From the IMG/VR virus record IMGVR_UViG_3300044624_001054, positions 42,616-106,615 of that record: 64,000 nucleotides of DNA. The stretch is one strand, 5' to 3'. Shown piece after piece: positions 17,383-59,967 of this stretch; position 1 is the first letter of the stretch; the number at the start of each line of letters is the position of its first letter. A program made the translations under genes and the position numbers. Origin of the DNA: a virus. A model generated the notes under the pieces. That model worked only from the letters and a program-made list of their open reading frames with translations. It made no database searches and was not told the DNA's origin.

Positions 17383-17572
17383 AAACTAATCTAGCGCTTC
17401 CATCATGACCATTGGGGCAGGTCCAATAAACTTTCTTATTTGATGAATCATACATACCTGTGGTCGCCACTTCAAAGCAGCCTTGCTCTGGGCAAGAGAA
17501 TGACCCACCTATTTCTTTAAACTTTGCATTAGATTTACTTGGAGCAGTAATAAAAGCCTTAGGGTCAATCAT
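17375..17572 (-). CDS. small zinc-binding protein
   Basis: CPEQGC and WTCPNGH. Confidence 0.7.
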   Translation of the reverse strand: MIDPKAFITAPSKSNAKFKEIGGSFSCPEQGCFEVATTGMYDSSNKKVYWTCPNGHDGSARLVYE

Positions 17573-19073: not shown

Positions 19074-22000
19074 CTTATAAAACCTTTTAATGTAGTAGCG
19101 CCAGCGGCAGTTTCTCCAAATATTGGGCGGCAATTAGTTCCTGGCTTCATCTTTGCAATTGCCTCTGCATACATAGTGGGAAAAATTACTATGGATATGA
19201 GATCTTTATCTTCGTTGGCGAGAACAGCATTAGCCATCTTGTCGCCCTTCTTAGTCTTTCTAGGTTCCATATCTACAACAAAATATTCTTCTGGACCTAG
19301 AACCATAGTCTTTGCCTTTAGAAATTGTACAAAAGAATTGTTAGAAGAGTCAAGAGAATCTGGGGTAAGGTAAGAAAGAATCCTGTTATCAGATATTAGA
19401 AAGATGTACATCTTACCAGGCTCAATTACTGTGTCCTGATTATGGAAAACTCCAACGCTTCCCGTCTTATCTACAATTTCTACCCTGCTCCAGCCATCGC
19501 CTCGCTTAATAGATTTCACCATACCCATAACAATAAAGGCTCCGCTTTCATCATATTCTTCTAAAGGTCTAAAGTATGACTCTACCCAGCGAGGAATATT
19601 AGTAACAAACTCTGGAATATTAAGGTACTCGTACAGATATTCTCGCTCGTTACCCGACCTGGGATTGTCATCAAATGCCGCAGCACCGATTCTATTAAGC
19701 CCTTCAATCGCCCTGCTATTTACGCCAGATCCCTTTTTACTTGTGAATTCTGTGAATTCTTTATAGGAACTGAATGGCCTTTTAGCAATAATCTTCTTAG
19801 AGATTCCCTCAGACAGGTACTTAATGTTGCCTAGGCCAAATCGAATGGCGTCACCCTCTAGAGTGAAGTCTTCTCCAGACTCATTGATGTGAGGTAGACG
19901 AATCTTAATATTCATTCTCTTAGCCTCAATTAGATAGTCTGTCCTTTTGTCTTTATCTAATTCATTCTTTAGTAGCGAGAACATGAACTCAGTTGGATAG
20001 TACCTCTTTAGCCAAGCCGTCCAATAAGATAGCGTAGAATAGGCAACAGCGTGACTCTTATTAAAGGAGTATCCAGCATGGGCCTCAAACATATGCCAGA
20101 GTTTTTCCGCTGACTCCTTAGAGATGTGCTTAGAAGCGCCAGAAATAAACTTATCCTTGAACTGGTCGAATTCTTTTGCATCCTTCTTCTTTCCAATGAT
20201 CTTACGAACTTTATCTGCTTCTGTCATTGTCATTCCACCAAGATAGACGCAGGCCTGCATAACTTGCTCTTGGTACAGAATACATCCATAGGTATCCTCA
20301 GTAAACTCTTTAAGAATAGGATGTAGATAGGACACCGCCTGACGCCCCTTCTTTCTCTTAATATAATCAGCACCAATAGTATTCATAGCACCAGGACGAA
20401 CCAGCGCATTAGAAGCGGCTAGTTCATTTAGATTACTAACACCCATTTTAATTATAAGGTTTGTGTATGGAGTTGCTTCTGCTTGGAACACACCCTTAGT
20501 AAACCCTGCGCTTAAGTCAGCGTATACCTCTGGATCATCCATAGGAATCTTATTAAGATCAATTTCTATCCCCTTGCGATCCTTGATACTATTAATGGTA
20601 TCTTTTACTACCGTCAAGGTTTTAAGTCCTAGAGCATCGATCTTGATTAGACCAATTTCAGCAGCCTGATCCATATCCACGGCGACCACAGGAATTCTAT
20701 TATCGCTATGGGCATCTTTTCTAGTTTCAATAGGGGCATACGATGAGATATCTGTCTTAGATGTAACGATTCCAGCAGCGTGCAAACCAGTACCACGAAT
20801 TCTGCCACGGAGTTTGTCGGCATACTTTACTACCTCTGGGTACCTCTCTCTGAAATCTTTGGCCCCTGGCGTACGGATAAATTCTTCCCATGTCTCAATA
20901 CCCTTCAATGCTTTATTTACCTCTGAGAGTGGGATGTTAAAGGCTCTAGCAACGTCCCTAACAACACCCTTATCTCTAAAAGTATTAAACGTTGCGATAG
21001 AAGCAACATGCTTATACTCTTCAATTAGATACTCTTTTACTTCTCCACGACGGCGATCTTCATAGTCTGTATCGATATCGGGGAAATCATTTCTGTCTGG
21101 GTTAATGAATCGGAAGAACAATAGATTATGTTCAATAGGGTCCACCTCTGTAATACCTAAAGCATAACAAATTAAACTTCCTGCTGCCGACCCACGCCCA
21201 GGACCAACCAAAATACCTTGTGTCTTAGCCCAATTAATCATGTTTGCAACGACTATAAAGTAAGAGGCAAAGTTCTTCTGCTTAATAATCTCTAACTCTT
21301 CTTTGGCACGATCTAAGTATTCTAATTCAATAAGTTCACGACTTCTAAGACCATCCATAACACGCTGCCTTAATTCTGCGTCGGGGTCTTGATGACTTAC
21401 TGGAAGAAGATCTACGCCAAATTTAATATCATAGGGCTGGATCTTATCACTTATTTCAACACTATTCTCATAGATATCTTCTCGGTCGATTCCTTGGGCA
21501 AGCATTCTATCTTTAACGTCCTGATATCCCATAAGCCAAATATCTAAATCCTTAAATGACATTTGCCTTTCGCCGTAAATGTATTCTAGTCTCTCTAGAA
21601 GATCCTTAATCTTACGGCTTTTATTAAAGTCTGCATCCTTAAGAACCTTAGGGTGAGTGCCCAGGATAAGCATGATTTCTTCTGCAATCCTGTCTTCTGG
21701 GGAAGCGAAATGACAGTCTAGTGTAACTACAGGCTTAATACTCAACCTGTCAGCCAGATTCAAAAGGGAATGATTCAAGGATGCAGGATTGTGCGGCTGA
21801 ATTTCCATATAGAAATCATCACCGTATACGTCTTTAAACCACTTTGCATATTGTACCGCTGCCGCCTCATTGTCATTCTCAATGGCCTTTGAAATCATTC
21901 CATTCATGCAGCCAGAAAGTATAACTAGGTCTGATCCAAACTTTTCTAGCATATCAAAGTCGGTACGCGGCTTAATGAAAAAGCCTTCTTCCCAGGCGTT

Positions 22001-22327
22001 TTCTGATAAACGATTAAGATTGTTTAGGCCGTTATCATTCTTAGCCAAAATGATCAAATGGTTGTAGATCTGATCATCGGGAGTTCTTTCCTTGCGAGAT
22101 CTCTTGTCTAGTCTGTCGGTAGTAAAGTAAGCCTCTAGTCCAAGGATAGGCTTAATGCCATGATCCTTACCAGCCTTTACCATCTCTCTATGTCCGCTTA
22201 GAGTGCCATGATCTGTAACACTAAGGGCAGTCATACCAACCTCTGCTGCCCTTTTGATCAATTCCTCTGGCGACGAGTACCCGTCTAGAAGAGAATAAAA
22301 TGAATGTGAATGATGGTTATGAAACAT
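19070..22327 (-). CDS. dnaE: DNA polymerase III alpha subunit (PHP + Pol C)
   Basis: HSHSFYSLLDG, TDHG, GPGRGSAAGS, PDIDTD, HAAG, KIDALGL, YQEQ, YSFNKSHA. Confidence 0.97.
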   Translation of the reverse strand: MFHNHHSHSFYSLLDGYSSPEELIKRAAEVGMTALSVTDHGTLSGHREMVKAGKDHGIKPILGLEAYFTTDRLDKRSRKERTPDDQIYNHLIILAKNDNGLNNLNRLSENAWEEGFFIKPRTDFDMLEKFGSDLVILSGCMNGMISKAIENDNEAAAVQYAKWFKDVYGDDFYMEIQPHNPASLNHSLLNLADRLSIKPVVTLDCHFASPEDRIAEEIMLILGTHPKVLKDADFNKSRKIKDLLERLEYIYGERQMSFKDLDIWLMGYQDVKDRMLAQGIDREDIYENSVEISDKIQPYDIKFGVDLLPVSHQDPDAELRQRVMDGLRSRELIELEYLDRAKEELEIIKQKNFASYFIVVANMINWAKTQGILVGPGRGSAAGSLICYALGITEVDPIEHNLLFFRFINPDRNDFPDIDTDYEDRRRGEVKEYLIEEYKHVASIATFNTFRDKGVVRDVARAFNIPLSEVNKALKGIETWEEFIRTPGAKDFRERYPEVVKYADKLRGRIRGTGLHAAGIVTSKTDISSYAPIETRKDAHSDNRIPVVAVDMDQAAEIGLIKIDALGLKTLTVVKDTINSIKDRKGIEIDLNKIPMDDPEVYADLSAGFTKGVFQAEATPYTNLIIKMGVSNLNELAASNALVRPGAMNTIGADYIKRKKGRQAVSYLHPILKEFTEDTYGCILYQEQVMQACVYLGGMTMTEADKVRKIIGKKKDAKEFDQFKDKFISGASKHISKESAEKLWHMFEAHAGYSFNKSHAVAYSTLSYWTAWLKRYYPTEFMFSLLKNELDKDKRTDYLIEAKRMNIKIRLPHINESGEDFTLEGDAIRFGLGNIKYLSEGISKKIIAKRPFSSYKEFTEFTSKKGSGVNSRAIEGLNRIGAAAFDDNPRSGNEREYLYEYLNIPEFVTNIPRWVESYFRPLEEYDESGAFIVMGMVKSIKRGDGWSRVEIVDKTGSVGVFHNQDTVIEPGKMYIFLISDNRILSYLTPDSLDSSNNSFVQFLKAKTMVLGPEEYFVVDMEPRKTKKGDKMANAVLANEDKDLISIVIFPTMYAEAIAKMKPGTNCRPIFGETAAGATTLKGFIR

Positions 22328-24307: not shown

Positions 24308-25531
24308 CTATTCAATTGGATCTAATATTTCTTTAAACGTTCCTTTATCAAAGTCTATTTCTAGATAGAAGTCACCCATGTATCCATGACGATTCTTTCT
24401 AAATGCTGCCTCTAGAATATCTGAGTTAGCCTTACGCCCCATACTTAAAACCCAATCAGCATCATATGCAATTTGTCGTGACCATGCAACCTGACCAAGT
24501 TGTGGCACAGATTCTAGATCAGTAGAATCATCTGGAGTTGCTGACGCAATTGCAAGAATTGGTGTCTGCTGAGAGATAGCAAGAAGTTTTAATTCTCTAG
24601 ATAGATTCTTAATCTTTACTGTTTCATTCTGAGAAGTTCCAGCATTATCTGTCATCAACTGCAGGTAGTCCACAATAACAATGTCTGGCTGGTATTGATC
24701 TATCTTAGAGGCAATAAGGTTAGGTGTCATCTCTGCACCAGTATCATTAGAAATAATTTTAAAAGGCTGCTTATTATTCAGAGTTTTATCCGCCCATAGT
24801 TTAAACTCATTGTCATCTACTCTGCCTGCACTAAGTGCGCGATGACTAAAAAATCCATCTCCAATAATTGTAAAGATTCTATTACGAACCTCATACTCAG
24901 TCATTTCAAGGCTGATAACCATAGGCTTGTACCCATGCTTCCAGGCCTGTACTGCAAAGTACAATGCCAGCCAAGACTTTCCGATGGCTGGATAGGCGAG
25001 CAAGATCCCTAACTGACCTTTAGCAATACCCATAGGAAGGCATACGTCAAACGATGTGATATCTGTTTTGATACCCACCTCACCATTCTCCGCAGACTTT
25101 CTTGTCTTCTCAAAATAGGCCAAAGCATTATCTACATCTGTTACATCGATATCTCTAACCTTGGCTCCAATGCGAGCCATCTTTGCAACATCCTTAGAGA
25201 GTTCTTGAAGCGCTTTAGTTGTCTCGTTTTCATTTACCATCTGAGCAGTTCTACGCAAAGAAAGTCTAATAGATTCGTCTAGGTATGCTTGACGCAACTT
25301 ATCCATATGATAAACGGTTGGCCCAGACTCTACTGCATCAAAATCACGGAACCGCGTAGTAATGAGGCTGGCGTCTGGGACCTCTCTAGTTTGATCATAG
25401 TAATCTTTAATGAAGAGCCAAATGTCAGAGCAGTCTTTTATAAGTTCATCAGCATTGCTATCAAACATCACATGAATATCTTTGTTTTTACATACTGATG
25501 AAATAACCTCTATCTCTTCAAGATAGGCCAT
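24308..25531 (-). CDS. dnaB: DnaB-like replicative helicase
   Basis: AYPAIGKS, SLEM, IVDYLQLM, SRELKLLA, YDAD, KNRHG. Confidence 0.95.
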   Translation of the reverse strand: MAYLEEIEVISSVCKNKDIHVMFDSNADELIKDCSDIWLFIKDYYDQTREVPDASLITTRFRDFDAVESGPTVYHMDKLRQAYLDESIRLSLRRTAQMVNENETTKALQELSKDVAKMARIGAKVRDIDVTDVDNALAYFEKTRKSAENGEVGIKTDITSFDVCLPMGIAKGQLGILLAYPAIGKSWLALYFAVQAWKHGYKPMVISLEMTEYEVRNRIFTIIGDGFFSHRALSAGRVDDNEFKLWADKTLNNKQPFKIISNDTGAEMTPNLIASKIDQYQPDIVIVDYLQLMTDNAGTSQNETVKIKNLSRELKLLAISQQTPILAIASATPDDSTDLESVPQLGQVAWSRQIAYDADWVLSMGRKANSDILEAAFRKNRHGYMGDFYLEIDFDKGTFKEILDPIE

Positions 25532-40792: not shown

Positions 40793-43700
40793 TTAGATAC
40801 TCCTACTATGGTTTCTTCTATTGTTTGCAGAGTTAATCATACTAATAACTTTATTAGCAATTGCGTTAGCACCCTTGCCACCAGCACCATTTATAACAAC
40901 CTTAACCTTGGTGTTATTTCTTGTTGAAGAGGAATTTCCAGCATAGTTAGTGTTATTAACTCCAACAGATGTATCTGCCATTGCTGGCATACTAAATGCT
41001 GGCATAGGTGCAGATCCAACCATTCCACCGTCTGCAAACATTCTAGGTTGCATGGATGAACCCTGGAATGGATTGAGTGACCCAGAGTTAATCTGATCCA
41101 TAAATCCTTTACCATATTTTGCAACAGATGATGCTTTAACTACATATTCTCCATTAGAAAGCATTGCTGGAATCATATCAGATCTAGGTCCGCCAGGTCC
41201 AGAAATAAATCCTCCAGCCGCATAAGTATTGGGCCTATTGAATGTTCCATCTGGATTAATACCTAGACTAGCAATAGTTTGAGCAACCTGTGATGGAGAA
41301 ACTGATCTACTTTGACTAATTTGAGTATGCATCCAGTCTGCATTTCCATAATGATCTGTAATAAAACCGCCTAAACTTGTTGGACCAAACCATTGAAGAA
41401 CTTTATATTTATTCATCAAAGCGTTCATAGTTTTATACGGTTCTGGTGAATATGATTTCCATGGTGCAAGGGGCGATCTCTTACCTTTCCACCAATCTGT
41501 TACTGCTCGTTTTTCATCGTCGCTAACCCACGACCATCCAAAATATACACCCTCATCTGGTGCATTGATATCTACTGCCGTTCCAGATGGATGATTAGAT
41601 TTACCTGGCTCGTCTCTTCCTTCTAGCCCACCTATATAACTAATAGGTCTAATCAATCTATTATAATCACTAGCAAAGGCAAGGAATAATGGAAGAACAT
41701 CTTTATTCATTGTTAAAGACATATTGGTTCCAGGAATTTTACCAGTTGCGGACTGGAACCCAGAATGCGGCCAATTATTAGGGCCACCTTGAGCGCCAAT
41801 AGTTGTAGTTGTTGGTCGTGCAGCGGTAGCAACACCTGTAGTTCCAACCCCAGGAAGGAATCCACCATTAGCAGGAGCATTAGGATCATTTCTATTGATT
41901 AGCGATAGTTTCCCTCTAAGCCCCCTGTTTGGTAAAGTAAGTGCTTCTCCGCCGTCAGCAAACTTTTGAACTAGTCCACCATTAGCATAGCCTCTTACTC
42001 CTTCGACCATTGCCTTTAGACGTTCTGATAAAACAAATTTTAAGAATTTTGGATTAACTAATCTATGCTGTGGAGCCTGAAGTGCAAATTTTGCAACAAT
42101 AGGATCTATAAGACCACCTATCCCGCCTGCATCTCCAAGCATTTCTTCTAACCTAAGAACTTGTTGCTTATATACAGAACCAGTTACTTTTCCAAAACCA
42201 AATGAACTTCCGTGCCTCGGGTCAAGAATTTTTAATGGGTCGGTAGGATCATTGGGTATTGGCCTGCCGTCATGAGTTTGAAAAACATTGCTTCCAAAAT
42301 CTATTCTATATGGAATAAGTCTTCCTGGTACGCCAAGAGGAATGGATTCATCTTCTTTAATAACATAATTATGTATATGTGAATCTCTTAATCCAAATAG
42401 TGTATCTACAGCCTTTCCTATTCCACCTTCTCTTGCAAGCCTTGATTGCATACTGCTATCTAATTGTGATTCTACAAATGTTAATCCGTCCGCCCAATCG
42501 CGGTTTGGATTCTTTCCAAAAAATTCTGAAACATGTTTAACATTATCTAACATTGTGCTTGAAGTTACAAGTTCTCCAGGGGGAAAATAGTTTAGTCCCA
42601 TCGCAGCAAGTTCTGGTGTGAGGTTCTTCCCAGGGAAGTATCTTTCTTTTGCCCCAATATTAAGAAGGTTTACATCAGGTACATTCATATTAAGGGCCTT
42701 ATATGCATTTGCAATTAAAGACTCTAAATAAACAGATTTTGCTCCAGATTCAGAATCATACGGACCTTTAACATATCTACGAACACCGTCCTTACCAATA
42801 ACTAAGCCTCCAGGACTAATTCCCCCCTGACTATTAGGGACTGATGTTCCAAAAACATTATCTAGTTGATTTTCGTCAACAGCCATACCTTTTACCCACT
42901 CAAGGAGGAGCATATCCCTGGAGGGTACGGCTGCGGTTGGTTTTGATGATGGTGGTAGAATTCTGGGGGCACCCATTCCTAGAGAAAATCTTAGATCGCT
43001 AGTAATTTGTGATATCGCAATAGGCTTAGGTGGAATTAAACCAGATTGCAAAGGTTGCATTACGCTAGAAGTCGCTGCCCTTCTAGAGGCTGACCTTCCT
43101 AATAATGATGCACCCTTAAACCCTATACCTACCCCAGGAATAACTCCAAGAATTTCCATAAGTGCAGCGGCAGATGCAATATCCTTTCCTTGCTGGTTTG
43201 ATTGATCAATGCTAGACAATCCATAGAATGGAAGTAGTGAGGCTGGGTCTGCAGCAATAGAAGAAGCCATAGATCCCAAGGTTGAGAAAATGCCTTGCTG
43301 ATCAATGCTGTTCTTTATTCCCTGGAACATTAAGTTAAAGCCAGAGCCTGCTCTTCCGCCACCGCCTGCACCAGGCTGCATATATCCGCCACGAGTATAT
43401 GGGCTATTTTGCTCTCTCCTCAATCTCTTCTTTCCATATACATTTCCATATGCCTGCTGGCTAGCACCACTATAACCTGTTGCAGACATTGGTGTTCCGC
43501 CAGTATATTGCGGCTTAACCTTAACTCCACCAAGATATTTGTTTCCAGCAGCCGCTGTTTCAGCGCGGTCAGCAGATACATAGCCTCCCGCGTAAAATCC
43601 TCGCACAAAACCACCATTAGCAAAACTAGGAATATTGTAACCATATTTCTCCGCCATTTCTGACGCTTTACGATATGCTAATTCTGCTTCTGGCTTAGGT

Positions 43701-46700
43701 GTACTGGGGTGGAAAGCCTTTTGTAGTAGCGCTGAAATTCTAGCAGCCTTTGTTGGATTGGCCGCAGCACCAGTTTTAAGAGTTGGCCCAGTAAACTGAT
43801 CTCTTGACGGTCTGGGAGGAGGCTCTCTTCTGGGAGGAGGTTCATTACGAGGAGGTGGCTCTCTGCGTGGTGGCGGTTGCCTGCGTGGTGGCGGTTCATA
43901 CCGTGGGCCACTATTGCGTGGAGGAACAAATCCAGGTGGAGGGGGGTTATCAAATGGATTGGGGGCGGTTCTTTCTCCTGGCTTAAAGAACGGATTTTGG
44001 TTACGACTAGCCCAAGCCACTTCATCTGCGGTAGCCATTGGTGGCGCTCCATATTGCAACATCCAACTCTGACGCTCAGAAGTGCTCCAAGAACTCCATT
44101 CTTTTGCAAATCCTTCTGGATATTTTGTTGGGAAATCTTTTATATCCACAAAGTTCGGGTCGTCGCGTAATGTAAACCTATTTGTATTTTCTTTAGTTCC
44201 TGGACCTGATCTAAATAGTTTATCCTTTGCTTCAGAGAGTCTGGCTCTATCGGCCCTAGGAATTCCTCCTCGGGCACCAAATGGAAACACACCCATGGCT
44301 ATTAGACCTCTTGTTAGAGCATCGCTCTCAACATAGGACTGACCACCGATAAATCTTCCCAACGCTGTTGTATCTTGCGTATCTATTCCAAAGGCTCTTG
44401 CGGGAACCCTGAATGGAGCAAAGAATGAATCAAATATGGTGGCCCCAGCGGTTCGCAATACATTTACCAAGCCCTTAACACCAGTAGGATCTTCTGGGTT
44501 ATACCCAATAGATTCAAGATTTATAAGGTCGCGGCGACGGGCTTTAGGTTTATTGTATCCTGTGGATGAGGTTGGAGTGCCACCAAAATATGTTGGGGGT
44601 GGCTTATTATAACCAGTAATAGAAGTTGGGGTGCCGCCATAATATGTCGGTCTTTGTGATGCCTGATATTCTTCGCGGTCGGCAGAGATATAGCCACCGT
44701 AGGCAAACTTTCCGGCATTGATATTATCCATCATATCCTTGCCGTATTTACTTACACTAGAGGCTTGAATTACATATTCACCGTTTGATAGATAGGCTGG
44801 AATTACATCAGACTTCGGTCCACCAGGACCAGTTACTTTTCCGCCGCCCTCTAGCATTACACGACCGTTTTGGATATATCCACCAGTTGCTGCTCTATTT
44901 GGATCTAATGCAGCGGCATCGTAATCATCTGTAACACCATCTCCGTCAGTATCTTTAGTTGTTCCACCTACATCTCCATTAATTGTTACACTATCAGCAG
45001 TAACCGTCATATCTCTAACTTGTTGTGCAGTATCACCAACCCCAGTATCGCCAACATTTTCTGAATTATACATCCATGTTGGATCTCCTCTTAATCCAAG
45101 GTCTTGAAGAACAGCCTCTACTCCCATGGGAACGCCCTTTGGACCGCGAGGCGCTGCAAGGGCCCCAGCCTGCCTGACAGCCTCTCCAAGAGTTACACCA
45201 CCACGATAATAAATTTCTTCAATTCTTAGTCTTAGCATTTCTTTTCTTGCTTCTACATAGGGCTTACTCTTTAATTCGGCATAGTCCTTAGAATATCTTT
45301 CTTCGGCTGCTTTAGCATTATCTCGATAGTCTTGCTCCATAGTTTTGATGCCTTCTATTTCTTGGTCTTTATCTTCTAAGGCATTTTCTCTAGCAGTATT
45401 TGCTCTTTCAATTTGTTTGTCATAGAATTCCATTCGATCATCGTGGGCATCTTGTTCTATTTCCATGAGATCTTGAACACCCTTAATACGATCTTCCATC
45501 ATTTGTTCATACTCATCTTGCTCTTTCTGCTTTTGCTCACGAATTTCATCTATGGCTTCTAGTTCAAGATCTCTTCTTTCTTCAATCCCAGAGATCATTT
45601 CATCATATGAAAACTCTTGGGCGTCCGCAGACATTTGTTCGCGTTCCTGGAGGAATCCAAAAACATCTCCAGATGCAAGTTTTTCAAGTGCGCCGAAAGC
45701 AGTTTTTCTTTGTTGTGCGTAGAATGACTCTGCTTTTTGATTCTTTTCAAGAGATTCAATGTAGGCATCAGAAGATTTTTCAATGGCCTCACGGCGGTCA
45801 TCTAGTTGCTGCATCTGCTCATCAAAGTCTCTTCTTCTTACATCCATCTCCTCCTGCATGCCCTCAATGGAGTTCTGACGGCCTTCCTGTTCCACCTCAA
45901 ATGCGTCTTGTGCAGATTCTTTTAGACCTTCATATAACTCAATTCTTTCATCCATCGCATCTGAATAATTTTCGAATCTAAGGTTTGCAGCATCTCTTTG
46001 TTCCTGGGCAAACTGATCAATCATCCCAAAGTAACTTTCTTCTGCTTCTATTCTAAGAAGTTTAGTCGCATCTGCTAGTGATTTAGCACTTACTGCCGCT
46101 CGGCCAAGAGCAATGTCAAATTCGCCAGCATCATTGATGGCCTTATCTAAAGAAATTCCGGCAATAGCCATTTGAGTTGCAACTACAGTTTCTTCTGCGG
46201 TGTCTATTGTTTGTAGAACTGTTTCCCATTCTGCTCCATAGGTATCCCTCAGGTAATCTGATAGCCTTCCTATTGCAGCAGTCCTATCATCTGGATCTTC
46301 TAGATTATTAATTATTTCTGTTAATTTTTCAAATCCTTCTATGGCAGCGGTAGGGTCTTGCTGGTATGCCATAACTAATGAGTCTATTACTCCAGATAGC
46401 ATTTCTGGATTTACTGTTAATAGATCTTCTATTCTATTTCCTATGGCATCTAATTCATCGCCTATTGCCTTTAATCTATTTTCTTCTTCTCTACTTGTTG
46501 GAGCAATAGGTACATACCCTGGCCCATCTGGAGTTTCTGTTGGTCCTGCTGGACCAATCCTATTTTGTTCTGCACGAGTTTCTCCAGAAAGAATTTTTCT
46601 TCTTTCTTCTTCTAGGGCGGCACGTTCTTTTTCTAAAGTTTGTAAAATTGTTAAACCAGAATTTCCTATTTGTGTTTCTGCTGGAGAGAATTGACCAACA

Positions 46701-49700
46701 ACGTTATTAACTGCATCCTTAATCGTTAAGGATTCGTCAAGTAAACCCTGGCCTACGGCCTCAGTAAAAGCCTTTCCTCCCGCTAGCCCTGCCTCTGCAG
46801 CAATTGCCTCTATTGCTGCTTTAGCATTTTCTGCACTCATTCCAGAAATAATCATATTGCTGTATGCAATAGATAATTCTTGAGCGCCTGCTCCTGCAGA
46901 CAAAGATTTAATTTGCTCTATTAATGGGGCATAATCTTGGCTTACTGCTTCTCTAAGTGCTTTATCTATTTCCTGTAAATCTTCAGAGACATTGGACAAC
47001 CTATTCTTTTCAAGAATGTCGGATACACTCATAATTGTCTCGCCAAAATATTCTGCACTCTTTACTGGATCATTAAATGCTGCTATAGCCCTTTGCCTAG
47101 CCTCTTCTGCTGCATTTCTATACATCATAAACCCAGTAATAGCAGCAGTTATACTAATTCCTGCAGCAATGCCAACAGGACCGCCAGCCACACTAAGGAG
47201 TCTCCCTGCACCTAATAATGCTGCACCGCCCATCTGTCCGCCGCGTGCAGCAGCCATAGCCCCACCCATTTGAGCAGCCCTTCCAGCCGCAGCAGAGCCA
47301 GCCATTTTACCACCAAGAGATTTCATTCCTAAGAAATTAGTAAACGTTCCTTTTCCTAGCCCCATATTCATCATCATGGTAGCGGTCATCAAGGCGGTGG
47401 TAAATAGGCCAAGTTTTGCAGCGGCGTCAGAGGACGCCCCGCCCATCATTGAGATGCTAGAGGTAACCATAGATAAGGCAAACATTGCGTTCATTGCGTT
47501 CATGCCCCGCATACCGCTCTGTGCGGCATCTTTTGCATTACCTATTGCAACTGATGGACCAGTAGTTGGAGCAGTACCTCTTTGTAATAAATAGGACTCT
47601 CTTCTAGCAGCAGCAAGTTGTTTTCTTTCATCCAAAGTCATATTTCCAAATCTAGATGATTTTTCTGATACTGCCGAATACGGGGAAACTCCACCCATAA
47701 AGTATCCCATTGATCCGCTTGGACCTACTCCAAATGAAGAAGCGGCGCGTGCTACGTTTGCTCTTGATAATGCTTCGTCTGAACTTGCCTTAATACGGGC
47801 TGTTTCTGCTGCACGCTCTTCAGCACGTTGTCTTATAGTTACAATTCCAGAAAGTTTTTTCTCTAGGGCTAATCTATGTGCTTCTTCTTTAGCAAGTGCT
47901 TCTAGTGTTTCTGTTCTTTTCTTACCAGCAACTGCTCCATCTTTATGAACCCATAGCCCTGTTTCAAGGCTCTTTATCCAATTAGCAAGAGTTATATTCC
48001 CTTGTTTTTGAATTGCATCTGTTCTTAATTGGCTGTCTGTAATCATACCTTGTACAATTACTTCTTTTTGAAGGGCTTTTGTTACTACAGATCTTGCTGC
48101 AGCCTCATGGTGCATTGCCTCTCTTATTCTAGTAGCAGGGCCTAAAGATTCTGCTCCTGGACCTATGGCCCTTAATGACCCTAGTGGCCCCATTGCACCA
48201 CTTACTGATCTTGTTCCAGAGACTATTTCATTGCCAAGTTCTTTTCCAGCGGGTCTTCCGTCTACCTTGCTGGCTCCTTGAATAAATCCATCAGATAGAT
48301 TCTTACCAACTCTATCAGCCTCTAGTGACGGGGATGCTTGCTTAGAATATTTTTTAACACTATTAAGAACTTTAGTTGGAATTTCACTAGCGCTAACGCC
48401 AAGTTTTACAAAGTATTCTTCTAATGCAATTATTTGTGTCGCGAGTTTTTGGCGAGCCTTAAGCAATATTTCATTGCCTGGATCTGCTTGCAATCTTCTT
48501 TCAATGGCACCGTACTGCTGCAATTGAACTCTTTGTGCGGCCCTCAAGTCCGGTGTAGTGGCTCCAGTTAACCCTGTTGTTCTTGCATCTAATAAAGTTC
48601 TGTCTAATATTGCTCTAGTTTCTGCAGAAAAACCTTTCTTTGTTGCTAAAACTTCCAACGCCTTTTCATATGCATTCATATCTTTAGTATGAATCATGAT
48701 TCCGCCAGTCAATGAGGTCATAATTCTATCTATAGTTTTAGCATTAGCCCCTGTTTCTTTCAGGGCTGCCTCAAGTTTTCCCCGTAAAGAACTTGACAAT
48801 CCAAAAAGATTTGCCATTTGATTTTCAGAGTCAAGGATGGTCTTCCATAGTTGTGGGTGCCAAGCGATAGCCTGACTATCCAGCCTTAAATTCTTCATGA
48901 ATCCGCCAGAACCTATAAGGTGACCTCTTGCTTCGCCTGGGGAAAGGTTACCAAATGCTTTAGAAACTGATGCTGGACGACTTCTAACATATTCCCCGTC
49001 TTTTCTTCTTGCTCTAACTGAAGCCCTTCCTTTTCCTGTACCCTCTACTGCGGCAGAATATCTTTGCAGCCATTTTTCATCTTCTGGGGTGCCCTTTTGG
49101 AATCCTGGTAAAGTTCCGCGATTCATTTCCATTAAGACGGGGGCATATTTTTGTGTGGCAGCACGATTTACTACAAATTCACCAGGCTCAAGCATGGCGG
49201 GTATTTTATCTCCACGACCAGATCCTGGAACAGAGCCGCCTTTATTAAAGGTTAAAGGCAGACCATACTGCCAGGGAGCCATATCTCCAGTTTGCCTATT
49301 TTTTTCAACCTCTGCCGCTTCTTTTTTAGCAATTGCTGCAGCAGTTGGAGGCTTCTTTACCTCCGGCGCTATATCTTTGTGGAACCTATATACTGCCGCC
49401 CAATCTATCTTTTCGGCGTCTTTAAGATCCTGAACAAGACGCATATACATTTGTCTTTCTGTTTTATCTAAGTATGGAAGTTTATCAATGGCTCCGCGAA
49501 CCTTTACAGATGCTTGAGCAATAGCATTTTTAAATCCTTCAACATACTCTTTTTCTGTCATGGATTTTGCAAGGACTGCTGATTCTTCGGCAAACCACTT
49601 TCTAGCGCCGCCCTTTTTCATGAGGAAGTTTATTTCTGCCTGTTCTTGAACTGATGGCAAAGGGCCGCCAATTACTCTTGGCTGAGAGGCTTTGTTTGCA

Positions 49701-52363
49701 ACAAATGCTGCCCCAACGTCAGTAACAACATTTCCATAAAGATTATCTGGCTGAAGGTCTTTATCCCTTCTCATAATAGATGCAATAGATTGATTGAAGA
49801 AATTATCTTTATCTATGACTCCTGTGCTAGAAGCAAATTTTGCATCATACGGTGATCGTACTGCAAATACAATATCTCCTGTAACAGGATGCTTAATTTT
49901 TACAAGTTCTTGTATTGGGGTCTTAAGCCCAAAGATATCTCTTGTCAATTGTGAGCCACGAATTTCAGCAAGCGCTGAATCTGCTGAGTCATGAGTCTTA
50001 ATTACATATTGTTTTCCACCTTGCTCATACACTCCATTAATACCAGGAATGGCAGAACTTTTACCACCAATAGAGGATACTCTTTTACCCATATCAGAAA
50101 CGGGCAGGCTAGCAAATCTTCCTGTTGTTGCTTCTTGATTTACTCTGCTTAGGGTTCCTCTTAATTCTTTTGCTCTCTGTACGTCTTGATATTTTCTTGC
50201 CATTCCAAGGAAGACTGCACCTACTGAAAATCCTGGCAATTGACCTTTATTCATGGCAGAAATTACTGGCCAATATTTAGCGGTAGCCTCCTTAGTAACA
50301 ACTGATTCTCCTGGTTCTAGTAAGGCGGGAATTATATCTCCACCACCATATCCACCAGGAACACGCTCTGGAGATGTAGATCCCTTCTGTCTTCTTATTG
50401 GAACTTGTCCCCGTGGGCCAGGAATGGCCCCAGGAACAAATAATGCTGGGTTAGCAGTAGTTAATCTTCTAAGAGATGCTTCATAGGAAGAAAGAACTCC
50501 TGTAAGTCTAAGGAGAGCCTTTTCCTGAGTATCAAATGATGTTGTAAGTCTGTCTACACCAAGTTTTGCAGCCATAATATCTGCAGTAAGTAATTCGAAC
50601 TTTTCTGTTTTAATTCCTGCGATTCTTACGCCGATCCTAGTCAGCATCAAGCCAAATTTAAGGCCATTAGCAAAAAGGTTTCCAAACAGGCCCACCAACA
50701 TAATTATTGGACCAGCCAACGCTGCAATGGCTACACTATACTTAGCAAAATCCTTTACTGGCCCAGGGAGTGCTTGGAAGAATGATGTAAACATTTTTAC
50801 ACCCTTACCAATAAATTCAAATATTGGAATAAGTGTTTCAGTAAGTACCTCGCCTATTGGCATTATTGAATTTTTTAATTCCTCTAATGTTCTTTGGAAT
50901 TTGACAGCAGTTGATTCAGTTAGTGTTCTAATTTCTCCATTAGCAATGGCTGCTAACTCAGCAGAACTCTTAGATGCAAGTTCTACAACTTGTTGTGTCT
51001 GAGATCCAGCCCTACCAATATTATCAAACAGGGCTGTAATTCTTGCAAACTGATATTTACCAAATATTTGCTCAATGATACGGGATCTTGAAAAACTGTC
51101 TAGACCCGCTAAAGCATCTTTCATTGCATAAATAGTGGGCATTAGTTGTCCGCGATTTGCTTCTACTATCCCAACAAGATCTACCCCAAAACCTTTAGCA
51201 ACTGCAGAGGCTTGTTTTGTTGGATTAATGAGTGATGCAAGACCAGATTTTAATGCATTGGCTGCTTCTGCCGCTGGAATGCCACCTTCACGCATAGCAA
51301 CAAGAAGTTCTGCAAGGTCTCTAATGTCTCCACCTAGACTTCTAACAACTGGACCAACCTTAGGGATAGCAGTAGATAAATCTTGTAGAGTGGCAGATGT
51401 TGAATTTTCTACAGCATTCAAGAAGTTGATTGATTCTGCTAATTCGTTAGTATTAAGTCTAAACGCTGACTGTAGGGCTAAAGTTGCCTTCATAGCCTCT
51501 TGTCTATCTACTTCACCGAGTACAGCCAATCTTGTAGTTTGTTGAACAGCCCCCATTAACTGCTCGCCTTCTTGACCTGTAGCAGCAATGTCTGCGGCTA
51601 GAGCAGCAGTTTCTTTAGCAGCAATACCATATGTTCTTGAAATTTCATATGCTAATTCTTTAACATCATCCCTCATTCTTGCGGTAGCAGCACTCATTGA
51701 TCCGCCTAACTCTGATCCGTATACTTTTTGGAACCTAGTTAATTCTTTATCAAGATCTCTAAACTGTTTAGACGCGACGGCGGTAAAAAGCATCAAGGGT
51801 ACTGTGAAGCCAACCATCAATTGACGACCAGCCCATTGGGTATTCTTACCCCAGTTAAGCATTGCAGTTGCGCCGCCATTCACCAGTTGATTAAATACTG
51901 AGAATCTTTGTGATGCTAGTGCAGCAGCATTACTTGCTGCATTAATATTCTGAGGCGTCATCATCATTGCCTGTCCGCCGCCAACGGGTACAGCGATGGA
52001 CTGTTGATATCTTACTTGCTGTTCAGCAAGCCTACGCATCAAACTATTTTCACGAGTATACCCAGTAATCGCCTCGCGGAAATACTGACGCATAGTAAGG
52101 CGATTTGCAGCAAGTTGCCTGCCAAAAGTTTCTACAGCGCTTGTTGCTTTAATAGTTGAAGTTGTAAATCCGCCAGTCTGCCCTACTCCTGCCGCAAATG
52201 TTGCAGCAAGACTTCTTTGGGCAGTAAGGGCGGATTTATCAAGAGTGTTAAAGGCAGCAGTTAAAGCGCCAATCTGAGTGGTGAGGGCTTTGATCTGTGC
52301 CTGGGCAGCAGAAAGATTTGCGTTATAAGTAATAGTAGAGTGAATGTTAGCCAAATTCAACAC
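40793..52363 (-). CDS. tape measure protein (3856 aa) with multiple inserted domains
   Basis: TP901-type core (LNAVEN..AIPKVGP..LKSGLASL), coiled coils, position after the frameshifted chaperones. Confidence 0.93.
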   Translation of the reverse strand: MLNLANIHSTITYNANLSAAQAQIKALTTQIGALTAAFNTLDKSALTAQRSLAATFAAGVGQTGGFTTSTIKATSAVETFGRQLAANRLTMRQYFREAITGYTRENSLMRRLAEQQVRYQQSIAVPVGGGQAMMMTPQNINAASNAAALASQRFSVFNQLVNGGATAMLNWGKNTQWAGRQLMVGFTVPLMLFTAVASKQFRDLDKELTRFQKVYGSELGGSMSAATARMRDDVKELAYEISRTYGIAAKETAALAADIAATGQEGEQLMGAVQQTTRLAVLGEVDRQEAMKATLALQSAFRLNTNELAESINFLNAVENSTSATLQDLSTAIPKVGPVVRSLGGDIRDLAELLVAMREGGIPAAEAANALKSGLASLINPTKQASAVAKGFGVDLVGIVEANRGQLMPTIYAMKDALAGLDSFSRSRIIEQIFGKYQFARITALFDNIGRAGSQTQQVVELASKSSAELAAIANGEIRTLTESTAVKFQRTLEELKNSIMPIGEVLTETLIPIFEFIGKGVKMFTSFFQALPGPVKDFAKYSVAIAALAGPIIMLVGLFGNLFANGLKFGLMLTRIGVRIAGIKTEKFELLTADIMAAKLGVDRLTTSFDTQEKALLRLTGVLSSYEASLRRLTTANPALFVPGAIPGPRGQVPIRRQKGSTSPERVPGGYGGGDIIPALLEPGESVVTKEATAKYWPVISAMNKGQLPGFSVGAVFLGMARKYQDVQRAKELRGTLSRVNQEATTGRFASLPVSDMGKRVSSIGGKSSAIPGINGVYEQGGKQYVIKTHDSADSALAEIRGSQLTRDIFGLKTPIQELVKIKHPVTGDIVFAVRSPYDAKFASSTGVIDKDNFFNQSIASIMRRDKDLQPDNLYGNVVTDVGAAFVANKASQPRVIGGPLPSVQEQAEINFLMKKGGARKWFAEESAVLAKSMTEKEYVEGFKNAIAQASVKVRGAIDKLPYLDKTERQMYMRLVQDLKDAEKIDWAAVYRFHKDIAPEVKKPPTAAAIAKKEAAEVEKNRQTGDMAPWQYGLPLTFNKGGSVPGSGRGDKIPAMLEPGEFVVNRAATQKYAPVLMEMNRGTLPGFQKGTPEDEKWLQRYSAAVEGTGKGRASVRARRKDGEYVRSRPASVSKAFGNLSPGEARGHLIGSGGFMKNLRLDSQAIAWHPQLWKTILDSENQMANLFGLSSSLRGKLEAALKETGANAKTIDRIMTSLTGGIMIHTKDMNAYEKALEVLATKKGFSAETRAILDRTLLDARTTGLTGATTPDLRAAQRVQLQQYGAIERRLQADPGNEILLKARQKLATQIIALEEYFVKLGVSASEIPTKVLNSVKKYSKQASPSLEADRVGKNLSDGFIQGASKVDGRPAGKELGNEIVSGTRSVSGAMGPLGSLRAIGPGAESLGPATRIREAMHHEAAARSVVTKALQKEVIVQGMITDSQLRTDAIQKQGNITLANWIKSLETGLWVHKDGAVAGKKRTETLEALAKEEAHRLALEKKLSGIVTIRQRAEERAAETARIKASSDEALSRANVARAASSFGVGPSGSMGYFMGGVSPYSAVSEKSSRFGNMTLDERKQLAAARRESYLLQRGTAPTTGPSVAIGNAKDAAQSGMRGMNAMNAMFALSMVTSSISMMGGASSDAAAKLGLFTTALMTATMMMNMGLGKGTFTNFLGMKSLGGKMAGSAAAGRAAQMGGAMAAARGGQMGGAALLGAGRLLSVAGGPVGIAAGISITAAITGFMMYRNAAEEARQRAIAAFNDPVKSAEYFGETIMSVSDILEKNRLSNVSEDLQEIDKALREAVSQDYAPLIEQIKSLSAGAGAQELSIAYSNMIISGMSAENAKAAIEAIAAEAGLAGGKAFTEAVGQGLLDESLTIKDAVNNVVGQFSPAETQIGNSGLTILQTLEKERAALEEERRKILSGETRAEQNRIGPAGPTETPDGPGYVPIAPTSREEENRLKAIGDELDAIGNRIEDLLTVNPEMLSGVIDSLVMAYQQDPTAAIEGFEKLTEIINNLEDPDDRTAAIGRLSDYLRDTYGAEWETVLQTIDTAEETVVATQMAIAGISLDKAINDAGEFDIALGRAAVSAKSLADATKLLRIEAEESYFGMIDQFAQEQRDAANLRFENYSDAMDERIELYEGLKESAQDAFEVEQEGRQNSIEGMQEEMDVRRRDFDEQMQQLDDRREAIEKSSDAYIESLEKNQKAESFYAQQRKTAFGALEKLASGDVFGFLQEREQMSADAQEFSYDEMISGIEERRDLELEAIDEIREQKQKEQDEYEQMMEDRIKGVQDLMEIEQDAHDDRMEFYDKQIERANTARENALEDKDQEIEGIKTMEQDYRDNAKAAEERYSKDYAELKSKPYVEARKEMLRLRIEEIYYRGGVTLGEAVRQAGALAAPRGPKGVPMGVEAVLQDLGLRGDPTWMYNSENVGDTGVGDTAQQVRDMTVTADSVTINGDVGGTTKDTDGDGVTDDYDAAALDPNRAATGGYIQNGRVMLEGGGKVTGPGGPKSDVIPAYLSNGEYVIQASSVSKYGKDMMDNINAGKFAYGGYISADREEYQASQRPTYYGGTPTSITGYNKPPPTYFGGTPTSSTGYNKPKARRRDLINLESIGYNPEDPTGVKGLVNVLRTAGATIFDSFFAPFRVPARAFGIDTQDTTALGRFIGGQSYVESDALTRGLIAMGVFPFGARGGIPRADRARLSEAKDKLFRSGPGTKENTNRFTLRDDPNFVDIKDFPTKYPEGFAKEWSSWSTSERQSWMLQYGAPPMATADEVAWASRNQNPFFKPGERTAPNPFDNPPPPGFVPPRNSGPRYEPPPRRQPPPRREPPPRNEPPPRREPPPRPSRDQFTGPTLKTGAAANPTKAARISALLQKAFHPSTPKPEAELAYRKASEMAEKYGYNIPSFANGGFVRGFYAGGYVSADRAETAAAGNKYLGGVKVKPQYTGGTPMSATGYSGASQQAYGNVYGKKRLRREQNSPYTRGGYMQPGAGGGGRAGSGFNLMFQGIKNSIDQQGIFSTLGSMASSIAADPASLLPFYGLSSIDQSNQQGKDIASAAALMEILGVIPGVGIGFKGASLLGRSASRRAATSSVMQPLQSGLIPPKPIAISQITSDLRFSLGMGAPRILPPSSKPTAAVPSRDMLLLEWVKGMAVDENQLDNVFGTSVPNSQGGISPGGLVIGKDGVRRYVKGPYDSESGAKSVYLESLIANAYKALNMNVPDVNLLNIGAKERYFPGKNLTPELAAMGLNYFPPGELVTSSTMLDNVKHVSEFFGKNPNRDWADGLTFVESQLDSSMQSRLAREGGIGKAVDTLFGLRDSHIHNYVIKEDESIPLGVPGRLIPYRIDFGSNVFQTHDGRPIPNDPTDPLKILDPRHGSSFGFGKVTGSVYKQQVLRLEEMLGDAGGIGGLIDPIVAKFALQAPQHRLVNPKFLKFVLSERLKAMVEGVRGYANGGLVQKFADGGEALTLPNRGLRGKLSLINRNDPNAPANGGFLPGVGTTGVATAARPTTTTIGAQGGPNNWPHSGFQSATGKIPGTNMSLTMNKDVLPLFLAFASDYNRLIRPISYIGGLEGRDEPGKSNHPSGTAVDINAPDEGVYFGWSWVSDDEKRAVTDWWKGKRSPLAPWKSYSPEPYKTMNALMNKYKVLQWFGPTSLGGFITDHYGNADWMHTQISQSRSVSPSQVAQTIASLGINPDGTFNRPNTYAAGGFISGPGGPRSDMIPAMLSNGEYVVKASSVAKYGKGFMDQINSGSLNPFQGSSMQPRMFADGGMVGSAPMPAFSMPAMADTSVGVNNTNYAGNSSSTRNNTKVKVVINGAGGKGANAIANKVISMINSANNRRNHSRSI
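43815..43905 (-). repeat. five 18-nt degenerate tandem repeats encoding Rx(E/Q)PPP
   Basis: RYEPPP RRQPPP RREPPP RNEPPP RREPPP within the TMP. Confidence 0.8.
44545..44650 (-). repeat. 54-nt tandem duplication in the TMP
   Basis: PTYYGGTPTSITGYNKP / PTYFGGTPTSSTGYNKP; a third, diverged copy near 43470-43512. Confidence 0.8.
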
Positions 52364-57735: not shown

Positions 57736-59967
57736 TTAGTTAAATACTTCTGCGGAACTGAGGAAGCGTCCGCCCCATACTGATTTCTTCATTATGGGTT
57801 GCTCTGGGATACTGGATTCCAGTTCGCCAGACTTCTTAATTGCCGTTTCTTCTTCTACTGATTCCACGCGATTAGCGATTTCTACAGCAGCAGAATTAAG
57901 ATCGGCTAAACTTTTGGTAACCTCTTCATATTTTGATTGAAGTTGACCAATCTTTTCGTCAACTGCCTTAGCAAGTTCGACTACTGCATTGGAGAACTTT
58001 TCAAGTGATTCGGTATTAGTTTCAATGGACTTAGTAATTGTCTCTTCTACGAAAGACTTAACTTCGCCAAGGGCCTTTTCCATGTCAAAAACTTCAGAGG
58101 TGGTATCATCGGCAACTTCAGCCTCAACACCATCGGACTTAGCCATAGCAAGGGCTTCCGTAACTACGTCCTCTACAGTTTCTTCTACTTCAAACGTTAC
58201 TTCCTCAGAAGTCTCGTCTGTTGCCTCGGCGGTGTCAAGTTCTTCATGGCTTGTATTATTGTCAGCCATTTCAACACCTCCTTCTCGTTTTTGTAAAGCC
58301 AGTTCATTTTCCTCTGAATTATCTGACTTTTTCGTTGACAATGGGTGACCCTTTGGCAACAAATCTGTGTCATATGGTCTGTTGTTGAACTTTCCTGATC
58401 TTACCGCCTGCAAGAATCCATTAACTCTTGCATACGCCCATTGCTCAGGAGAATACTCATCTGATTTTTGCATCTCTGGGTTAGCCTTAAATGCTGCTAT
58501 GCCGCGCTCAAAAACCTTACGCAGCATATCGAATGAGACATTCTTAGAATCAACATTACCATATTTTTCATTATGCTGAGAAATTAAGGTATTTAGATGA
58601 TCAATATCTTCATTTGATAATGACTTCTCTAATGCTTTTTTACTTGCAACCTTAATTTTTGTTAAGTCTGTAATATTTTTAGTTACGATGTTATTGGTTG
58701 GCTGGAACTTGTTATCCGCCACCTCTTTGTAAATTCTAACCGCTGCTTTCTCTGTATCAATAACATCCACACGGCCCTTAGAAAGTTTTGCATTGTCTGA
58801 AAATACTACATAGTCTCCAGACTTAACCATACCTTCATCTTTGCGGTACATACGCTTTTTCTTTCGTGGAGCCTTTGGAATTCCTCCAGGCAAACCTTGC
58901 TGTGCATTACGAGCAGGAGTATTTTCACTAGTTACTGTTTCTTTTTCTAGATCCTCGTCCTCCATGTCTTCATCGTGCATCTTAGCACTTAGAGCAGAGA
59001 TTCTTCTAAGAGTACTCATCTTGTGACCAACCCTTGTATCTGAAGGAGCCCATCCATCGGCACCCTTACGATAAACTCTAATTAAAACAGCAGGATTTCC
59101 TTCTTCTGCGTTAATGGTAAAGTCTGAGCCAGGAACATCAATAGAGCCTGATCGTACAACTCTTTCTACCTTTCCTCTAGCCGTTCCACCGCTTGAACCC
59201 CATGATACAAAATCTCCTACTCTTACTGAGTCTGCCTTTGAAATGAAGCCATCTACAAGTCTTCCAACCTCTTCATTCTTCTTTACATCCGTTGATTCTA
59301 CCCAACCGATTTCATTCATAGAGTTTTGGCAAACTGGGCAGTCCGCAGAGTCAGATTTTTCTGTCAAGGCAATCTTGTCTGAGGCGCACCAAAAAACATT
59401 TTCTGTAGAAAATTCTGTTGCAATTCCAGATGTAACGATTTCATCACCTAATTTTTGAATAGAGAAAATGTTAGCAAATTGATTGGCGGGGCTGTCAACT
59501 AGAGAGAGTTCCATAAGTTCATATTCTTTTACAACCCTTACTGCGCCACTATCAGCATCTTGATCGTCCATCTTATTTTCAAAATCTACAATTCTGCCAC
59601 CGATTGAAAAACCTGTAAGGGTACCATCTAGAACCATTTGCCAAATATTTTCTGCACCTTTAGAGATGTATGCGTCAACGAATATACCGCTGTACGTTTT
59701 TCCAGTTTCTTGATCATAGAAAGAATTTTCTCGGAAGGAAATAACTTTTCCAGCAGGAATTGGTTGATGCATCAAACGGACATTTCCTCTAAAATTCTCA
59801 AAGGCTTTTCTTGATGCTTCTGATAAAAGAATGTCACCTTGACGATCTATGTTGTCCAGGGTGGCGAATCCGCTAACTACTCTACGTTCTTCATCTACTT
59901 TAGCAATAGGCATAGTAAGACGGAGACTGTCTCCATCTACATCGAAATGTGCTTTATTAATAATCAT
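57736..59967 (-). CDS. prohead protease / scaffold with inserted domains
   Basis: KVDEERRVVSGFA..D.QGD, MH, GFSIGG, ELSLVDSPAN; acidic coiled-coil C-terminus. Confidence 0.9.
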   Translation of the reverse strand: MIINKAHFDVDGDSLRLTMPIAKVDEERRVVSGFATLDNIDRQGDILLSEASRKAFENFRGNVRLMHQPIPAGKVISFRENSFYDQETGKTYSGIFVDAYISKGAENIWQMVLDGTLTGFSIGGRIVDFENKMDDQDADSGAVRVVKEYELMELSLVDSPANQFANIFSIQKLGDEIVTSGIATEFSTENVFWCASDKIALTEKSDSADCPVCQNSMNEIGWVESTDVKKNEEVGRLVDGFISKADSVRVGDFVSWGSSGGTARGKVERVVRSGSIDVPGSDFTINAEEGNPAVLIRVYRKGADGWAPSDTRVGHKMSTLRRISALSAKMHDEDMEDEDLEKETVTSENTPARNAQQGLPGGIPKAPRKKKRMYRKDEGMVKSGDYVVFSDNAKLSKGRVDVIDTEKAAVRIYKEVADNKFQPTNNIVTKNITDLTKIKVASKKALEKSLSNEDIDHLNTLISQHNEKYGNVDSKNVSFDMLRKVFERGIAAFKANPEMQKSDEYSPEQWAYARVNGFLQAVRSGKFNNRPYDTDLLPKGHPLSTKKSDNSEENELALQKREGGVEMADNNTSHEELDTAEATDETSEEVTFEVEETVEDVVTEALAMAKSDGVEAEVADDTTSEVFDMEKALGEVKSFVEETITKSIETNTESLEKFSNAVVELAKAVDEKIGQLQSKYEEVTKSLADLNSAAVEIANRVESVEEETAIKKSGELESSIPEQPIMKKSVWGGRFLSSAEVFN

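Follow-up and report, generated by a model that had tools for sequence, protein, structure and literature searches.

A predicted HipA-like kinase module carried as an optional cassette in a phage tape measure protein

The window analyzed here is a stretch of 64,000 nucleotides of the virus record IMGVR_UViG_3300044624_001054 from IMG/VR (record positions 42,616-106,615), and coordinates are given as positions in this window. The source record, from an uncultured phage, is 106.6 kb in length, with a completeness estimate of 88%. The window includes a gene for a tape measure protein (TMP), and a module of about 300 residues in the C-terminal part of this protein is the subject of the analysis (Table 1). 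The protein was recognized as a TMP from its family domain (Pfam PhageMin_Tail at residues 237-435, E-value 4.6e-29), its great length and its place in the tail gene block. A gene for a minor tail protein (phrog_10359) lies downstream, small open reading frames of the tail-assembly type or of unknown type lie upstream, and tail-tube-like and head genes are found nearby. The module shows the motifs of an atypical kinase in the expected order, and it is very probably a kinase-fold homologue, as judged from the sequence comparisons described below.

The sequence-only reading of this DNA had pointed out five motifs, namely SQGGISPGG, RYVK, ANAYKALNMNVP, DTLFGLRDSHIHN and RIDFG. All five are real and are encoded in one open reading frame on the minus strand, at TMP residues 3178-3357 (window 42293-42832). 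In the alignment of 10 TMP-type modules, which are 27-95% identical (alignment A2), the residues G3181, G3185, G3186, K3199, D3327, N3332, D3355 and G3357 are invariant. With this invariance across 10 homologous modules, the motif set is, on the evidence of the aligned residues, beyond chance. The module is probably catalytically active. There is no confidently assignable column for the activation loop, the fourth canonical Hip motif (PMC8262856); inserts are abundant from the N-lobe to the catalytic loop. The module ends with a YANGG...FADGG linker, and the same motif ends the module in the homologues.

Relatives of the module were searched for with HMMER among 1.84 billion cluster representatives, and five strong and one weak true relatives were obtained, all within very long proteins. 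A second search added three further TMP-type relatives; wherever these proteins were named, the annotation was TMP. The module had no tblastn match among 50,697 records of cultured phages, and word-seeded protein searches for stand-alone (169-685 residues) and medium-sized (686-2000 residues) forms gave nothing beyond one protein, P0005. A profile scan of genome contigs with the TMP-type module revealed no relative. The whole-TMP scan against Pfam contained no kinase match, and the models PF20613 and PF00454 had no match in the phage genome. Neither PHROGs nor NCBIfam gave a match for the module or for the members of the sister family described next.

A pattern scan of IMG/VR with A2 brought up distant relatives in large non-TMP proteins, which are designated as the NWD family. 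They share the motifs GSNxGG, YVK, ANWDAVG-x3-DN and RIDxGG (e.g., RIDQGG). The family comprises 98 viral matches and 34 matches in bacterial genomes of many phyla, versus about 10 modules of the TMP type. In the alignment of 67 NWD-family sequences (A4), the K, E, N-W-D, G and N residues are invariant and the second Asp is nearly so. Profile-profile comparison with hhalign matched A2 to A4 at 99.4% (E-value 1.1e-21, 212 columns), with K3199, E3214, D3327, N3332 and D3355 each falling on the corresponding conserved residue of A4 (K, E, D, N and D). The SQGGISPGG loop is paired with GSNxGG of A4, as well as with the start of the HipA_2 profile described below, and D3355 falls on RIDxGG in the NWD family and on "IDH" in HipA_2. 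When all 237 open reading frames of at least 60 residues in the window were searched with a hidden Markov model (HMM) of the sister family, the TMP was the only significant match (residues 3170-3238, E-value 1.4e-6). The two groups differ in the catalytic loop, which is N-W-D-x-x-G-x3-D-N in the NWD family instead of D-x-H-x-x-N.

The NWD module, like the TMP module, resides inside proteins that are packaged and ejected, but its carrier is the MuF head protein and not the tail TMP, and it is far commoner. Nine full-length NWD proteins were scanned for domains. A Phage_Mu_F domain is found at the N-terminus of four (above the Pfam cut-off in three of these) and an ADP-ribosyltransferase at the C-terminus of three; the domains seen include Phage_Mu_F and ADPrib_exo_Tox, and in one protein the MuF, kinase-like and ADP-ribosyltransferase domains stand in tandem. 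MuF proteins, which are components of the head, have been proposed to deliver toxins fused to them along with the DNA (PMC5576092; PMC5512222). The NWD module is also encoded by cultured phages of Gordonia, Pseudomonas, Aeromonas, Yersinia, Escherichia and Morganella, under the labels "hypothetical" or "ADP-ribosyltransferase". One carrier is gp78 of Gordonia phage Forza, adjoining the genes for the portal, MuF and ADP-ribosyltransferase, and another is gp117 of Pseudomonas phage Dolphis.

Both alignments were compared with the HipA families by hhalign. The HipA_2 alignment was built from 14 proteins matching PF20613 and the HipA_C alignment from 29 proteins plus Escherichia coli HipA, with the family members taken from sampled Pseudomonadota genomes. 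A2 matched HipA_2 at 90.4% (E-value 1.4e-6, 147 columns) and HipA_C at 68% (E-value 4.7e-5, 137 columns). A4 matched HipA_2 at 97.0% (E-value 1.1e-10, 131 columns) and HipA_C at 58% (E-value 9.9e-5), the latter over 51 columns of the N-lobe only. As a yardstick, HipA_C against HipA_2, both of which are HipA-like according to Pfam, reached 96.9% with the E-value 1.7e-10, equal to the match of A4 with HipA_2. Reversed and column-shuffled templates gave at most 1.7%, with E-values of at least 0.03. In hmmscan, HipA_C was matched by 19 of the 67 NWD members (best E-value 1.1e-4) and HipA_2 by four, while other families were matched by at most three each; among the TMP modules, HipA_2 was matched by three of the 10, over the same N-lobe stretch each time.

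Other kinase families were considered as the closest relative and rejected. For eukaryotic-type protein kinases (ePK, PF00069), represented by 18 actinobacterial Ser/Thr kinases, hhalign gave 0.3% with A2 and 4.9% with A4. For APH (PF01636), represented by 18 proteins, it gave 0.9% and 13.5%, respectively, and the two control families matched each other at 98%. CotH (PF08757) was rejected as the closest family by sequence with 13.1% for A2 (E-value 0.0022, 141 columns) and 5.6% for A4. By these profiles, the module is a predicted member of the HipA/CotH assemblage of atypical kinases, with HipA_2 as the nearest family.

The module and HipA_2 have the Gly-rich loop, the Lys, the Glu, an "LG-x-x-VP" strand, the D...N loop and the ID-x-G motif in the same order, and the cores are similar in size. 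The differences are in the setting and the periphery: HipA_2 members are stand-alone bacterial proteins of about 250-320 residues, whereas the module is embedded in a virion protein of 3856 residues and has an extra C-terminal helical region (residues ~3395-3458) as well as inserts that follow the N-lobe and precede the catalytic loop. With E. coli HipA (HipA_C, PF07804), the likeness in the catalytic loop is residue for residue. FGLRDSHIHNY of the module is aligned on IGATDGHAKNF, so that D3327, H3329 and N3332 correspond to D309, H311 and N314 of HipA, and the alignment ends before D3355; the Mg-binding Asp of HipA is D332. E3214 is aligned to E203 in NEYYCLLLAKELGLNVPD of HipA, a helix and strand that resemble LESLIANAYKALNMNVPD, and the YVK Lys of the NWD family, equivalent to K3199, falls on K181 (IIK) of HipA. 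The module differs from E. coli HipA in the absence of the HipA N-terminal subdomain and in the lower probability of the HipA_C match. Its layout is also unlike the toxin-antitoxin layout of HipA; it is inside the TMP gene, its neighbors are tail genes, and there is no adjacent antitoxin gene of the HipB or HipS type. CotH has its motifs in the same order and register, but its profile similarity to the module is much weaker than that of HipA_2.

A separate observation concerns HipA_C and CotH themselves. In Pseudomonadota proteins of 1500-2270 residues, sub-threshold Pfam matches to HipA_C (E-values 3e-5 to 7e-4 per genome) fall exactly on the CotH domains. Together with the hhalign match of 95.3% between CotH and HipA_C, this indicates that these families are closer than their separate Pfam entries suggest.

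The sequence-only reading had described the module as HipA/PI3-4-kinase-like. The HipA half of this description is upheld by the profile comparisons and their clean controls. The PI3/PI4 half was not supported by the Pfam searches: PF00454 is absent among the hmmscan matches of the 10 TMP-type and 67 NWD members, and the ESM Atlas neighbors with a Pfam family (HipA_2, PI3_PI4_kinase and LepB_N, at 0.86-0.87) agree with the HipA/CotH placement but are sub-threshold and serve as leads only. Injection into the host, with defense or translation proteins or lipids as possible targets, was a further suggestion of that reading and is conjectural. The two lipid-kinase leads of the ESM Atlas, PI3_PI4_kinase and LepB_N, with a match of the N-lobe to LepB (4jw1, E-value 0.17) in a profile search of the PDB, bear on another explanation, in which the module has a kinase fold and acts on a non-protein substrate, such as a membrane lipid, a cell-wall precursor, a nucleotide or a small molecule, or performs another ATP-dependent transfer such as AMPylation. 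Kinase folds with other chemistry are known. The position in the TMP fits this explanation as well. A hydrophobic segment, which may span a membrane, is located about 70 residues ahead of the module, and just beyond the module there is a stretch resembling M15-type peptidases, a putative cell-wall hydrolase. Even so, the sole statistically supported relatives are HipA_2 and HipA_C, and the characterized HipA proteins are Ser/Thr protein kinases (PMC8262856). With no PF00454 match in any member, a non-protein substrate is considered unlikely.

The distribution of the module was surveyed in related TMPs, for which IMG/VR gave 596 matches. The 80 TMPs most similar in the N-terminal part were taken, of which 56 are complete at the 3' end. 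The module is present in one of these 56, a relative with 94% identity, and TMPs with 87%, 76% and 70% identity in the N-terminal part lack it. Since only one of the 56 TMPs has it, the module is an optional cassette, dispensable for the ruler function. It sits near the C-terminal end of the TMP, probably as cargo and not as a part of the ruler.

These data bear on the explanation that the module is a catalytically dead pseudokinase or a structural or binding domain, for example one that serves as spacer or plug, or that binds a receptor or ATP at the tail tip. Its burial in a structural protein and the variable His of the catalytic loop would suit such a role. However, K3199, D3327, N3332, D3355 and the glycines are invariant down to 27% identity, and the 67 sister sequences have K, E, D and N without exception, while residues of this kind are usually lost in pseudokinases. 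A structural role is also difficult to reconcile with the 55 of 56 related TMPs that manage without the module. This explanation seems improbable.

The name "copy 2" had been given to the module in the sequence-only reading. "Copy 1" is an insertion in the N-terminal half of the same TMP. It includes the motifs GINGVY, YVIK, AE, RRDKDLQPDN and TDVG in the kinase order, and it is missing from nine of the 10 TMP relatives compared; the tenth, P0005, shows a marginal partial match (E-value 4e-4). The closest relative of copy 2, P0002 (locus L247, 95% identical module), is without copy 1. Conversely, a relative of copy 1 with 79% identity was found at locus L176, and its TMP (L249/L176, 87% related) has copy 1 and not copy 2. 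The similarity of copy 1 to the NWD family is weak (hhalign 65%, E-value 5.9e-5, N-lobe only; HMM domain E-value 0.39). BLASTP between the two copies gave nothing below an E-value of 2.7, and the idea that copy 2 is a recent duplicate of copy 1 was abandoned. Copy 1 is possibly a second, unrelated-looking kinase-like module.

The explanation favored here is that the module is a divergent atypical kinase of the HipA branch, with a complete catalytic set, which is carried as cargo by the TMP and delivered to the host; as a whole, this is given somewhat better than an even chance. TMPs exit the tail ahead of the genome, with the C-terminal parts placed at the tail tip, and the TMP of phage lambda, gpH, forms a trans-envelope channel (PMC12617516). 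By the favored explanation, the TMP would be driven out of the tail tube in advance of the DNA. The module would refold at or inside the host membrane and, at the expense of host ATP, would phosphorylate Ser/Thr residues of one or a few host proteins. Characterized HipA kinases phosphorylate aminoacyl-tRNA synthetases (PMC8262856), and by analogy with HipA-family toxins the targets could be translation factors such as these synthetases, or else defense proteins. Such phosphorylation would take effect at the very start of infection, prior to phage gene expression. The three-dimensional fold, the enzymatic activity, the delivery to an ATP-containing compartment and the substrate are what we infer in this scheme. 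That the module works in the newly infected cell, once delivered with the TMP, is proposed tentatively, at a little less than even chances.

Several observations weigh against the favored explanation. The isolated module had no Pfam match even at the E-value of 10, and three relatives scored 10.3-14.1 bits on the curated HipA_2 model, for which the cut-off is 27 bits. Sequence searches of the PDB with the single sequence and with three profiles gave nothing meaningful; the top profile matches were an S-layer protein (E-value 7e-4, over a Gly-rich stretch) and the LepB match noted above. The confidence of the AlphaFold2 prediction was low, with pLDDT of 33.8 when the single sequence was used and 41.6 with the 10-sequence alignment. 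With the latter low-confidence model, Foldseek found nothing in the PDB below an E-value of 1.4. The kinase-fold proteins FN3K, PYK2 and LicA are in the Foldseek list at E-values of 5.7-9.6 and were not counted. The His of the catalytic loop, H3329, is not invariant in A2 (seven H, two N and one K among the 10). As for delivery, a folded domain of 300 residues, in three to six copies, would be too big for the lumen of the tail tube, and it would have to travel unfolded and refold. For the C-terminal TMP parts of other phages, such as T5 pb2C, the presumed site of action is the periplasm or the cell wall, where there is no ATP (PMC12617516).

The two low-confidence structure predictions and the lack of Pfam or PDB matches at standard thresholds could also mean that the module has no kinase fold, and that its motifs and profile matches are a convergent or chance likeness in an unrelated domain. 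This is hard to maintain against hhalign E-values of 1e-6 to 1e-10 over 131-147 columns, with every motif in register and clean controls, and against the finding that HipA_C and HipA_2 are the sole recurrent families among the 77 sequences. It is regarded as highly improbable.

By a further explanation, the module is an active kinase working late in the producer cell, on host proteins, superinfecting phages or phage assembly proteins, and its presence in the virion is incidental. A folded kinase would not fit into the tail-tube lumen, and the TMP is a late-gene product, soluble in the cytoplasm where ATP is present. A late or immunity role was proposed by Benler et al. for a HipA-like kinase of "Gratiaviridae", whose gene lies between those of the portal and the capsid (PMC8008677). 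Against a producer-cell role, the module and its sister family recur inside packaged and ejected carriers, namely TMPs and MuF proteins, the latter often beside Alt-like ADP-ribosyltransferases, and fusion to ejected carriers would be needless for a late cytoplasmic enzyme. This explanation is considered unlikely, and delivery as TMP cargo is preferred.

Some further features of the TMP were observed outside the module. A DUF2786 match above the cut-off (E-value 2.7e-6) sits after a Pro-rich block of R-x-E-P-P-P repeats. The motif G-(G)D-x-IPA-x-L-x-x-GE-x-VV occurs four times in the protein. These four motifs and short (F/Y)A-x-GG units bracket the TMP modules, and they may be processing sites or small folded joints. 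In phage lambda, gpH is cleaved in its Gly-rich C-terminal region (PMC12617516).

The sequence-only reading had taken the host to be an actinobacterium, and this guess gained support. Two WhiB genes above the Pfam cut-off are encoded by the phage (E-values 2.2e-13 and 4.8e-19), one in the window and one outside it, and WhiB was found only from Corynebacterium among 14 control genomes. The capsid protein is closest to the capsids of Streptomyces phages, with 43% identity, and the G+C content of the phage is 36-44%. From these three features, the host, which is uncultured, is likely to be a low-GC actinobacterium. Among the other genes, that for the prohead protease is unusually long (743 residues); the phrog_9427 match covers its first ~240 residues, and the product may be a head protein with extra domains. 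The phage also encodes a DnaE-type DNA polymerase III alpha subunit, a DnaB-like helicase and RecA.

Table 1. Coordinates of the TMP gene, its module and motifs, other features of the phage, and loci of related families. Positions are those of the window unless a locus is named.
Feature	TMP residues	Position or locus	Strand	Basis or remark
TMP gene (P0001)	3856 in total	40793..52363	minus	single open frame; PhageMin_Tail
HipA-like kinase module ("copy 2"), predicted, ~300 residues	~3158-3465	41969..42892	minus	conserved block in 10 homologues; hhalign
Gly-rich loop SQGGISPGG	3178-3186	42806..42832	minus	G3181, G3185, G3186 invariant in A2
RYVK	3196-3199	42767-42778	minus	motif position
Lys3199 (RRYVK), predicted ATP-binding lysine	3199	42767..42769	minus	invariant in A2 and A4
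Glu3214 (YLESLIANAYKALNMNVP), helix-C-type glutamate	3214	42722..42724	minus	A2: E 9/10, D 1/10; A4: invariant
ANAYKALNMNVP	3218-3229	42677-42712	minus	motif position
DTLFGLRDSHIHN	3320-3332	42368-42406	minus	motif position
Predicted catalytic loop D3327-S-H3329-I-H-N3332	3327-3332	42368..42385	minus	D, N invariant in A2
RIDFG	3353-3357	42293-42307	minus	motif position
Asp3355 (RIDFG), predicted Mg-binding aspartate	3355	42299..42301	minus	invariant in A2
Linker YANGGLVQKFADGG, closing the module	3459-3472	41948..41989	minus	read from sequence
Hydrophobic segment	~3062-3090	43094..43180	minus	Kyte-Doolittle, 19-residue window, peak 1.89
M15-type peptidase-like stretch with SNHPSGTAVDI, 3' of module	3586-3620	41504..41608	minus	weak Pfam Peptidase_M15_4, E-value 0.24
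"Copy 1" insertion	716-1045	49229..50218	minus	missing from 9/10 TMP relatives compared
DUF2786 match	2874-2908	43640-43744	minus	
IPA-type motif, four occurrences		50297-50344, 49169-49213, 44768-44815, 41138-41200	minus	
WhiB gene in the window		4034-4207	minus	
WhiB gene outside the window		G000:C1:29109-29300		
Prohead protease gene		57736-59967	minus	
DnaE-type DNA polymerase III alpha subunit gene		19070-22327	minus	
DnaB-like helicase gene		24308-25531	minus	
RecA gene		17569-18576	minus	
NWD-family loci		L008-L087 (IMG/VR); L091-L124 (bacterial genomes); L177 9001-9585; L178 5001-5504		
CotH-family proteins with HipA_C signal (L226, L227, L229, L230, L235)		G104:C41:7857-8807; G032:C11:356056-357018; G020:C28; G028:C11; G044:C24		

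A search of the papers available for a kinase within a tape measure protein gave nothing relevant, and a jumbo-phage paper and a MuF-toxin paper contain no mention of such a kinase. Kinases among, or fused to, virion or early-delivered proteins have precedents in the "polyvalent proteins" of phages and plasmids, with their kinase domains (Iyer et al. 2017, PMC5512222), and in "Gratiaviridae", with a HipA-like kinase (Benler et al. 2021, PMC8008677). They are likened to the module by description, and neither of them lies within a TMP. Those of the polyvalent proteins are assigned to the Ser/Thr/Tyr-kinase superfamily, with the C-lobe lost and a His...Asp insert present; these features are not seen in the TMP module. 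Few phage kinases have been characterized; Benler et al. counted two, those of T7 and 933W (PMC8008677).

If the favored explanation is true, a HipA-type kinase in a TMP would represent a new class of pre-made effector, which is delivered before any phage gene expression. Neither the T7 nor the 933W kinase is known to travel in the virion. The sister family suggests that a virion-kinase strategy may be common but unannotated. A wider proposal, which we consider less likely than not, is that a large unnamed family of HipA-related kinases serves as ready-made virion cargo in MuF proteins and TMPs, and that the TMP version is fired from the tail and phosphorylates host translation or defense proteins within seconds of infection. 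In that case, no kinase delivered by a phage tail would have been known before it. The presence of the sister module in cultured phages makes the idea testable at the bench. The finding, if the predicted kinase identity is right, would connect the phage side of the conflict with the HipA toxins, which are familiar from persistence and toxin-antitoxin systems.

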